Virus record (IMG/VR): IMGVR_UViG_2645727991_000008
From: a virus
Lineage: Duplodnaviria > Heunggongvirae > Uroviricota > Caudoviricetes
DNA length: 12,523 nt
Reading direction: 5' to 3' (one strand)
Shown: piece by piece, positions 1 through 3,000 of the stretch
How positions within the stretch are numbered: the stretch's first letter is position 1
How the letters are laid out: every line of letters starts with the position of its first letter
Program-made: the position numbers

Positions 1-3000
1 CGTCACGCCATTTCCTGTTGGATCATGTAAATGACACTCAGGTTACAAAACCGGCCAGAATAATCGGCGCCAGGCGGACTGAGTTATTGTCGTTTCATAC
101 ACTTCTGCTCTCATTGCTGGTTTGCGCTTGCATTGCAAGACCACTCGTGAAGGGGTTGGCCTGTGTAGCTTGTCGGAGCTGATCGCCTCCTGACTTTGCA
201 GATTTGCGCGACGAGCTCTACGGCGAGAAGCTGCGGTGCCTTTAAATTCTGTTTTTCTGGACATGGATTCCTCCCGAATAAACTTTGGCGATGCAATCTC
301 GAAGCTCCTCCTGAGACGGTTGCTTCGGCATTGCATCCCACAGCTTATGTGGTTGGGTGATCTGGCTTTTCAGCCACGTAGTCGAGAGTCGACGTTGTTT
401 AAAGAGCCTGCCAGTCTGTTCCATTTGGCTTCCAGCGTCCTGCTGACGGTTAAATAGTACGATATGTACTTTACAAGGTCAATACAATTTGTTGTAAGTT
501 GGCGTGGTTTTTTATAACGCTTTGTATTTAATAGTGTTGTTTTTTTAGCGTGGATGTATTGTCTCGGCGATGTAAGGAGAGATCAGAATTGCGTGGTTTA
601 GTGGGTTGCATCTATTTATTTTTCAATAAATATAATTGGTTATGTGTTTTTAGGTGGGCGAACGTGAGGCAAAGAAAACCCGGCGCTGAGGCCGGGTTGT
701 ATTATGCTGCAAGTCTCTTAATCCAAGTCTCTCTTTTGGAGAATGGTAGAACTTGGCTTGATTCATGGAAGAGTAAGGAGAGTTGTTGCATTTGATCACC
801 AATTGCTTCGCTGTCTATAACAACAAATCTGTTGTTATACTCCTCACTTGAAGCTTTAAGATCAATTAGTTTCCCAAGCAATGAGTAAGCACTATTCCAG
901 CTTCCTCCGTGTTTCACGCTTGATGTAAAAACGTATTTAGGTATGTCGGTTTTTATTGTTACAGGGACGGTAATTTGATGTCCACTCAAGCCATATACGT
1001 TTTCACGAAGAGAAAGTGCGTCTCTAAGCTCTGTGTGATATAGATAATCAATAACCATACTTTCAAACTTTTCAGCTTGAACTGGCTGATACCAGTCTAA
1101 CGACAAAGTTGATGCGAGTATACCAGCTCTAATTATGTTCGATGTAATCGCACCGACATCCTTTTCTGTTGCCCAAGCAATGATTTCTCCTCGAGCATTG
1201 AGTTCTGCGCCTTCTTTAAGCAGTAATTGTCGTATCTCATCAAGTCGTTTTTTGGTAAGCGAGATCCCTCTTGCCTCCATATTCATTAAGGCATCGCATC
1301 TGTCACTAACTAAATACCTACCATTGACTTCACGGATAAAGGCACCGACATGCTCTCCATCATCACAGTAAGTGAATGGACTGATAATTCTCAAGGTCTT
1401 GCCTATTGGATGGCATTCGAAACCTAGTTGTGAGATCACTGTTGAGCACATCATATTCCAAACCCCATTTGCCCCGACTCATCTTCAAGCGGTAAAGGTA
1501 TTCTCCCAGAGTAAGTTATGTTCAGATGTTTACAGAAGTAATTCCAATACCCTACCAGGTCATCTGGGTTTATGTCATCTTCGATTGGAAACGCTATTCT
1601 ATCACTATAGTATCCAGCTTCTTCATAGTATACATGGTAGTGAGCACCGTAAATGATATCTTGGTACTTCGGATGATCGACCTTGTAACTATTCGTGTGT
1701 TTGTCAAAGTGATAGGTATCTACCGCGAAAACCCTCTTGTTATGATAGAAAGCAATAATATTTATTTTAGGGTAAGAAATCGGGTCATCAGGTTCTGAAT
1801 CCTGATCTGGTTTCCATTTCAGTTCAAACTTTAGCCCTTGTATAGGTATACAATCCTCATCCAAGGGGATGATATGAGCTTGTAGCCACATATCAGAGCG
1901 ACTTGGTTTCTGTTTCCATTTAACGCCAGAAAAGTTAACTATTTTTTTACAATAAAGTACTTTATCAACTTCTACTTGGCTTGGCTGATAATCATCTATT
2001 TTTGCCAATGTTTACCGCCCTGTAAATTGTAGATAAAAGTGGTTTCATCACCCAAACGTCTCTTCAGGCCATTGGCTGGCGATAACTTTCCCCACAACGG
2101 AACAACTCTCATTGCATGGGATCATTGGGTATTGTGGGTTTAGTGGCTGTAGAAACACCTGACCGCTATCCCTGATCAGTTTCTTGAAGGTAAATTCATC
2201 ACCACCAAGTCTGGCTATGCAGAAATCGCCGGGCTCAACAGCTTGCTCAGGGTCAACCAGAATTAACATCCCGTCAGGAAAGCTGGGTTTGGAACCTGTT
2301 GGTGCGGTCATTGAGTTACCTTCAACCTCAAGCCAGAATGCAGAGTCACTGGCTTTTTTGGTTGTGCTTACCAATCTCTCCGCATCGCCTTTGGTAAAGG
2401 TTCTGAGTTCTGGAGAGAACATCCCAGCCTGAACATGAGAAAAAACAGGGTACTCATATTGTTTTTTAACTGGGGCCGATGAGTATTCGCCAACAGGTGA
2501 AAATGTCCCGTCGTGGTTGAATGATATGTTATCAATACCAAGGTATTTAAACACCACACCAATATCACTAAGAGATGGATGACGAGATCCGCGCAACCAG
2601 TGTCCAATCCCACCCTGCGTCATACCTAGCTCTTCGGCTAACTTCTCTTGAGTTATGCCGAGCTCTTTCATTCTGGATCTAGCCAGTTCATACCATTTCA
2701 TTTTCATGTCCTTATTATTACGCTTTGTACTGGAACCATCCATGCACAATGTGTATTTTTACTTGTATTCTTAAAGTACATATTGTATTTTTATTCGTGT
2801 TTACTATGGAGGGCATATGAGCAACCTACGAAAATATCGAGAGTCACTGAATATCTCTCAAACAACACTTGCTAAGGCAGTTGGATGCACACAGGGAGCT
2901 ATCGGACATTGGGAATCTGGTCGTCGCTTCCCAGACCTTAAAACATGCCGTGCTCTTGTTGCATGCCTAAACAAGTTAGGCGCAAAAGTCAGTCTTGATG

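Follow-up and report, generated by a model that had tools for sequence, protein, structure and literature searches.

What takes the place of rexA and rexB in a lambdoid prophage whose repressor gene is followed by neither? The question is raised by a 12,523-nucleotide (nt) stretch of a virus of the class Caudoviricetes (IMG/VR record IMGVR_UViG_2645727991_000008; hereafter the window), which is the immunity and early region of a lambdoid Escherichia coli prophage (N, cI, cro, cII, O, P, ren, nin genes and Q). Two genes, here called A (185 amino acids, aa) and B (250 aa), follow cI in this window. The original prediction, made from the sequence alone, singled them out as a candidate lysogen-expressed exclusion or defence cassette, and that candidate status is now supported by an exact swap for rexA-rexB, by alternative cargo in the same slot, by a position behind a repressor in 112 of 112 loci and by matches of both proteins to PDC-M24, a candidate system in the PADLOC collection. 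On balance, and by analogy with known repressor-linked cargo, we lean towards the view that the pair is a lysogen-expressed module of two cytoplasmic proteins for exclusion or abortive infection, which would be the positional equivalent of RexAB and BstA and unrelated to both.

A precise substitute for rexA and rexB

The elements of the locus are as follows.

2750-2816: OR and pRM-pR region between the divergent cI and cro open reading frames (ORFs), with an operator-like element at 2772-2783
2048-2749, minus strand: cI-type prophage repressor (HTH_3 and Peptidase_S24; Pfam S24 1.3e-28, HTH_3 2e-10)
2009-2047, minus strand: cI-A spacer of 39 nt, with a weak Shine-Dalgarno-like GGGCGG 6 nt ahead of the TTG of A
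1451-2008, minus strand: gene A, 185 aa, TTG start
702-1454, minus strand: gene B, 250 aa, ATGATG start
677-698 (read 698-677), minus strand: intrinsic terminator, an 8-bp stem (6 GC pairs) and then a T-run, 3 nt past the B stop
577-698: left conserved flank in common with lambda (the region just 3' of rexB), from blastn against lambda
454-482 (read 482-454), minus strand: pL-like promoter and overlapping OL operator-like 12-mer

The coordinates of the original prediction hold: two co-oriented ORFs start 39 nt past the cI stop, overlap each other and end at a terminator that precedes OL/pL. The first ATG of B and the TGA of A overlap as ATGA, and B is translationally coupled to A. The layout had also been said to mirror OL-tImm-rexB-rexA-cI of lambda, and comparison by blastn makes the likeness exact. 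Nucleotides 2047-2458, from 1 nt 3' of the cI stop codon (2048-2050), are 93% identical to the C-terminal half of lambda cI, which bears out the claim that this domain is lambda-like up to its stop. On the other side, 577-698 is 90% identical to lambda 35708-35826; this block ends inside the rexB stop codon, and the homology ends 3 nt short of the stop codon of B. No match to lambda was found by blastn between the two blocks. Since the lambda matches break at the cI stop and at the rexB stop with none between, 699-2046 is an exact substitute for rexA-rexB, from the one stop codon to the other.

The two genes are presumably read from the repressor transcript. No terminator-like site was found in the spacer between cI and A, and no promoter of the pair's own stood out above chance. 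The terminator at 677-698 is the counterpart of the one that follows rexB in lambda, and it closes the cI-A-B unit. By analogy with the lambda pRM annotated in phage HK542, we infer that the OR region at 2750-2816 is the source of a lysogenic cI-A-B transcript. The pL-like promoter, together with a 12-mer that OL shares with OR, places OL/pL about 190 nt beyond the terminator, much as in lambda. This 12-mer, TAAAGTACATAT, lies in OR at 2772-2783, in the cI-cro intergenic region, and has an inverted copy in OL at 462-473; it is probably an operator half-site of a non-lambda immunity type. Only the C-terminal half of cI is lambda-like, and its N-terminal DNA-binding half belongs to a different immunity type. 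The start annotated for cI in identical phages is an ATG that gives 231 aa (2048-2743), and the gene is annotated as cI in PhiR57_1.

The cassette shares with lambda RexAB the slot between cI and the terminator upstream of OL/pL, the orientation of cI, a pair of co-oriented genes with the same terminator region after them, a low GC content (39% against 41%) and a presumed transcription with cI. A GC contrast of about 38% with 55% had been estimated between the cassette and the replication genes. The contrast is real and its size is smaller, with 39.4% for the cassette (40.9% for lambda rexAB) and a mean of 50.1% for O-P-ren, where 300-nt windows reach 56.7%. The likeness to RexAB does not extend to the proteins. 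There is no sequence similarity, and the PADLOC models of RexA and RexB match lambda and not A or B. The order of sizes is reversed (185 and 250 aa here, 279 and 144 aa in lambda), and RexB has several transmembrane helices whereas B has none. Over 19 residues, Kyte-Doolittle hydropathy peaked at 0.45 in A and at 1.19 in B, and RexB, with 51 windows of at least 1.6, reached 2.39; by this measure neither A nor B has a transmembrane-like segment. The claim that the genes are not Rex and lack RexB-like helices is thus confirmed by both PADLOC and hydropathy. An ion-channel effector of the RexB type is impossible for B without such helices and, with no membrane segment in either protein, the pair could not have membrane depolarisation of the RexB type as its effector step.

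The slot itself is used for varied cargo. The left flank 577-698 was found in more than 200 phage records, and the two flanks together surround rexAB in lambda, SfI and 4W and one single ORF in mEp332. In phage HK542 (our locus L024, 731-1782) the same flanks enclose an unrelated overlapping pair of 144 and 206 aa without a PADLOC hit, another uncharacterised occupant of the rexAB slot. Phage VT2-Sakai has only the cI C-terminal flank in common with the window, and a different single ORF (orf22) lies downstream of its cI. The interval between cI and N is known from the literature as a mosaic hotspot, and the proven abortive-infection protein BstA is among its occupants (PMC8585504).

A and B travel together behind many repressors

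An identical cassette is present in 239 of 5426 complete E. coli genomes (about 4%), including prophage 3 of strain Nissle 1917 and the type strain ATCC 11775, as well as in phages ev207, ev017, PhiR57_1 and PhiR63_2 and in an Stx1a phage. A second subfamily, 51% identical, is very common in E. coli, and the index of the assembly collection lists it in 4213 blocks. Loci were gathered from genomes, assemblies and IMG/VR and were scanned with profiles for A, B and cI. The hosts identified are Escherichia, Salmonella, Yersinia, Providencia, Xenorhabdus, Izhakiella, Pantoea, Klebsiella-type, Aeromonas and Thorsellia, and D3-like phages of Pseudomonas also carry the pair.

A lies directly upstream of B for 112 of 113 B genes, with an overlap of 4 or 13 nt, and the exception is cut by a contig end, which leaves 112 evaluable loci. 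In all 112 a co-oriented lysogeny repressor lies upstream (103 of the helix-turn-helix (HTH) plus S24 type, 9 short and HTH-only), at a median distance of 90 nt from A. Clustering at 70% identity splits the repressors into 44 groups and the B proteins into 6 (13 and 2 at 40%), and B copies that are at least 90% identical sit behind up to 7 different repressor clusters. Based on these results we conclude that the A-B pair moves as a unit between immunity regions, always downstream of a repressor and in several families of bacteria. The converse exchange is seen at locus L009 (5723-7777; E. coli CP138399), where the divergent subfamily, with a B that is 51% identical, lies downstream of the cI allele of the window (phmmer 2e-162). 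Judged from these sequences, one immunity type has evidently seen one version of the cassette exchanged for the other.

Such strict linkage recalls BstA, whose gene lies downstream of cI and keeps to the repressor locus in a wide variety of prophages of Gram-negative bacteria (PMC8585504). BstA of Salmonella prophage BTP1 and its relatives has the same repressor-linked position that A-B has in 112 loci, and a shared promoter is presumed for both. In contrast, BstA is one large protein and has a cognate self-immunity element in the DNA, aba, whereas A-B consists of two unrelated proteins for which no such element was identified.

The linkage could also mean that A-B modulates the prophage's own switch and excludes no other phage. 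A repressor in 112 of 112 loci is what this account would lead one to expect, as is the lack of any match when B was searched by tblastn against 72,556 plasmids, and RexAB offers a precedent for a role in the switch (Thomason 2021, as cited in PMC12315714). However, the pair follows repressors with two induction mechanisms, the self-cleaving S24 type and the short HTH-only type, and these fall into 44 clusters, which argues against a specific repressor partner. Strict linkage is also compatible with pure defence, as BstA shows (PMC8585504), and both proteins match a candidate that PADLOC catalogues as phage defence. We therefore regard a role confined to the switch as unlikely.

Other genes sometimes lie between cI and A. 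A DUF3024 gene of 113 aa with a match to PDC-S43 (3e-35) separates the repressor from A in Providencia (L016, 5053-5394) and in Izhakiella (L014, 5044-5385), so the slot can stack several candidate defence genes. In Pseudomonas phage VB_PaD_phPA-G (PP083311; L023), an unannotated ORF at 4486-5004 is a clear homologue of A (RVVAID...HxN...HPHLH...YAEPL...GQMGF). Its overlap with the B homologue amounts to 4 nt, and a 216-aa gene with a weak match to PDC-S48 separates this ORF from a CI-like repressor.

Prophage 3 of Nissle 1917, at icd (L022, 6095-7700), is degraded, with a truncated integrase and an IS3-family insertion, and its block sieB-N-B-A-cI-cro-cII-O-P is intact. In a study of this strain, the only prophage 3 gene tested was the 'pr' gene. 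Retention of the cassette in this defective prophage is compatible with a benefit to the host. It would also suit an addiction module of the toxin-antitoxin kind, which would stabilise the prophage or the immunity region and have no direct anti-phage role, a reading to which the form of the operon also lends itself: it is small, its two genes overlap and are translationally coupled, and its first gene has a conserved weak start (see below). Against addiction, searches of Pfam, NCBIfam and PADLOC linked neither protein to a toxin or antitoxin family, both exceed the sizes typical of type II pairs, neither has a DNA-binding antitoxin-like domain, and the pair lacks a promoter of its own above chance. 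We consider addiction improbable.

Both proteins match components of PDC-M24

A and B are real coding genes under purifying selection. Against their homologues, the proportion of nonsynonymous differences (pN) is 0.10-0.35 while that of synonymous differences (pS) is saturated at 0.7-0.9, and the rate of evolution of A is about 1.5-1.9 times that of B. Spurious ORFs were considered as an explanation and rejected on the conserved length, the pairing and the strong purifying selection.

The original prediction could place neither protein in a known family, and this part did not survive. B matches Pfam DUF1828 over residues 26-110 with 33.5 bits (gathering cutoff 22) and belongs to PHROG 1960; A belongs to PHROG 2017. 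NCBIfam gave no match for either protein, and profiles of A and B searched by sequence against all PDB chains returned only noise (E of at least 0.2).

A PADLOC search had been proposed with the original prediction. Against the set of 5027 models, in which the positive controls lambda RexA and RexB scored 9e-110 and 9e-61, A and B gave no RexA, RexB or BstA match at E of 1 or less and matched only PDC-M24A and PDC-M24B. B matches PDC-M24B (PDLC04540) end to end at 6.1e-10 (residues 2-248 against 4-253 of 256), and five of its relatives, including the Pseudomonas phage homologue, match at 3.5e-5 to 1.5e-9. The match of A to PDC-M24A is weak (4.8e-4) and covers residues 104-163, about 60 residues. 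A also matches Pfam DUF6978 at 2e-4 over residues 104-164, with 22 bits against a gathering cutoff of 29.6. Among 15 representatives of the A family, 5 match DUF6978 and 3 match each of two PDC-M24A models. As A stays below the Pfam cutoff and aligns over some 60 residues only, it is at best a distant sister of PDC-M24A/DUF6978. Nevertheless, it is unlikely that A and B would independently match both components of one system by chance.

PDC-M24, whose A component is DUF6978-like and whose B component contains DUF1828, resembles the pair in the number, order and sizes of the genes. A lies immediately upstream of B in one operon in all 112 evaluable loci, and the part of A that carries a cluster of conserved histidines (see below) aligns with the C-terminal part of PDC-M24A and of DUF6978. 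PDC systems are unpublished candidates (PMC11811056), and PDC-M24 is one without published validation or mechanism. PADLOC would probably not call PDC-M24 at this locus. In the accessible literature we found no relevant mention of PDC-M24, of the two RefSeq protein accessions or of the phage names. DUF1828 and DUF6978 appear there only in passing, in four unrelated papers, and the main texts of the DefensePredictor and domain-centric discovery papers mention neither family.

B joins a chaperone-like domain to a nuclease-like domain

A comparison of predicted structures with known folds had also been proposed, and it gave folds for B and no structural match for A. B is a cytoplasmic protein of two domains (AlphaFold model built on 19 homologues; predicted local distance difference test, pLDDT, 82.7). 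In this model the N-terminal domain (residues 1 to about 120), which contains DUF1828, has a YbjN/type-III-secretion-chaperone-like fold. The C-terminal domain (about 130-250) has an alpha-beta-beta-beta-alpha-beta core of predicted restriction-endonuclease-like fold, in agreement with the core-fold definition of the PD-(D/E)xK superfamily. A Pfam search with the C-terminal domain alone found no match.

The canonical residues of that superfamily are missing. Sequence and predicted secondary structure, compared without superposition, place no Asp at the start of beta-2 and no (D/E)xK on beta-3; beta-2 begins instead with an invariant SGH159, and beta-3 reads K-Y-x-F-T-S, without a conserved acidic residue. 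The Pseudomonas homologue, 29.5% identical to B, has lost K173, while H159, T177, W186, D198, R209 and D/E214 are kept out to that distance. As the canonical catalytic residues are missing, we claim for the C-terminal domain only a nuclease-like fold of uncertain activity. B differs in the same respects from PD-(D/E)xK effectors such as Can2/Card1, NucC and type II restriction enzymes of the NgoMIV/PspGI group, which have the acidic residue of beta-2 and the (D/E)xK of beta-3. It also lacks a CARF or other known sensor domain and has the YbjN/chaperone-like N-terminal domain in its place.

A carries an invariant histidine cluster

A was described as acidic and rich in tyrosine, and it is so, with a pI of 5.3 and 8.6% Tyr. 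It is cytoplasmic and predicted to be mostly beta, without a recognisable fold. In an exhaustive HMMER scan of 1.84 billion representatives, the A family comprised 20 clusters only, all of 76-184 aa and none longer than A, and no fusion of A to another domain was found among them.

The TTG at 2008 is the sole possible early start of A because an in-frame TAA lies directly upstream, and all homologues begin with MAK-. Among 27 distinct upstream contexts from the 112 related loci, 24 have GTG or TTG as the initiation codon of A, and Shine-Dalgarno-like motifs are weak. Conservation of such a start points to deliberately weak translation of A, to which the translation of B would then be coupled.

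In family members that share 21-48% identity with A, the residues K22, W31, R92, D97, N106, G121, H123, H125, F158 and P173 are invariant, and H104 is nearly so. R92, D97, H104-x-N106 and G121-x-H123-x-H125 together form a cluster (D-HxN-GxHxH) whose D...HxN...GxHxH residues sit on neighbouring predicted strands, and which is on this basis a probable metal or active site. DUF6978 has been described in the same way (bioRxiv 10.64898/2026.05.15.725322). The C-terminal tail of A (about 170-185) is conserved, including a GQ motif, yet it is predicted to be disordered.

A putative metal-binding site leaves room for a role with no bearing on phages, in which A-B is lysogenic-conversion cargo that benefits the host, for example as a metal-dependent enzyme whose target is a host metabolite or a stress pathway. 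A DUF6978 protein of Staphylococcus aureus is reported to respond to ciprofloxacin (bioRxiv 10.64898/2026.05.15.725322), and other morons in the window, such as a homologue of LpxR, are host-directed. Set against this are the proven exclusion systems that fill the slot in other phages, the occurrence of the pair only in prophages and in linkage with a repressor, and the match of both partners to a defence candidate. Conversion of this kind has, in our judgement, only a slim chance of being the explanation.

A possible mode of action

If A-B is an exclusion or abortive-infection module, as we favour, a prophage in lysogeny would make both proteins from the distal part of the repressor transcript (pRM-cI-A-B-terminator), and they would act on superinfecting phages. 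A and B may form a complex in which the conserved disordered tail of A is a plausible ligand of the chaperone-like N-terminal domain of B. A could then be a metal-dependent catalytic effector, working through the invariant Asp/His/Asn/HxH cluster on adjacent beta-strands, and B a sensor or regulator whose nuclease-fold domain, its canonical catalytic residues lost, probably binds nucleic acid. More tentatively, the pair could represent a mechanistically new and widespread prophage defence, with A, a protein of unseen fold that carries a metal-binding His cluster, as an effector that is held or triggered by a B of chaperone-like and rewired-nuclease domains. Its dosage would be set by the repressor transcript, and it might double as a regulator of induction, as RexAB does.

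Several observations weigh against an exclusion or abortive-infection module. Every context in which the family was found is a prophage immunity region, and no copy turned up on a plasmid or elsewhere outside prophages: a scan of contigs with one genome per species returned 8 loci, of which 7 were prophage immunity regions and one was a contig fragment of 518 nt. Many defence systems roam more widely, and this distribution does not exclude a role tied to the control of lysogeny. Furthermore, the nuclease-fold domain of B lacks canonical catalytic residues, so that no effector chemistry can be assigned, A has no recognisable fold, and the match of A to PDC-M24A/DUF6978 is short and falls under the Pfam gathering score. 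Finally, the accessible literature, which did not include Brenes and Laub 2025 on E. coli prophage defence, yielded no expression, toxicity or phage-challenge data for A-B or for PDC-M24.

Other cargo in the window

Two further genes in the window lie in AT-rich surroundings. On the minus strand, 7730-8692 encodes a 320-aa homologue of LpxR, the outer-membrane lipid A 3'-O-deacylase (Pfam 4.5e-40), in an island with a GC fraction of 0.28-0.42 between a NinI-like phosphatase (6857-7522) and Q (9083-9856). By its sequence it looks like a host-directed moron and could remodel lipopolysaccharide in lysogens. On the plus strand, 10026-10784 encodes a protein of 252 aa that has a multi-pass membrane look by eye, no Pfam family and a GC fraction of 0.29-0.43. 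It lies directly downstream of Q, where related phages keep stx or other late cargo, and is followed by a DUF1737 (nanS-p-like) gene at 11327.

Implications for prophage immunity

Candidates of this sort are numerous, a related family is already catalogued as PDC-M24, and the kind is a known one, repressor-linked prophage exclusion cargo. The pair is set apart by its positional rule, by how often it occurs in E. coli and by a fold of A that cannot be assigned. If A-B is indeed a defence, the repressor-linked immunity of prophages represented by RexAB and BstA would gain a new mechanism built on two proteins, one of no known fold and the other an unusual fusion of chaperone-like and nuclease-like domains. 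The pair would also provide a first functional handle on PDC-M24 and on DUF1828/DUF6978. Current tools probably miss the pair, and the rule that it always follows the repressor, whichever repressor that is, can serve as a search principle for more lysogen-expressed cargo. Relatives occur in prophages of Salmonella, Yersinia, Klebsiella, Providencia, Aeromonas and Pseudomonas. The cassette is common, being carried by about 4% of complete E. coli genomes, among them Nissle 1917 and that of the type strain, and by Stx1-converting phages, and it could therefore affect host range in phage therapy and the spread of Stx phages.

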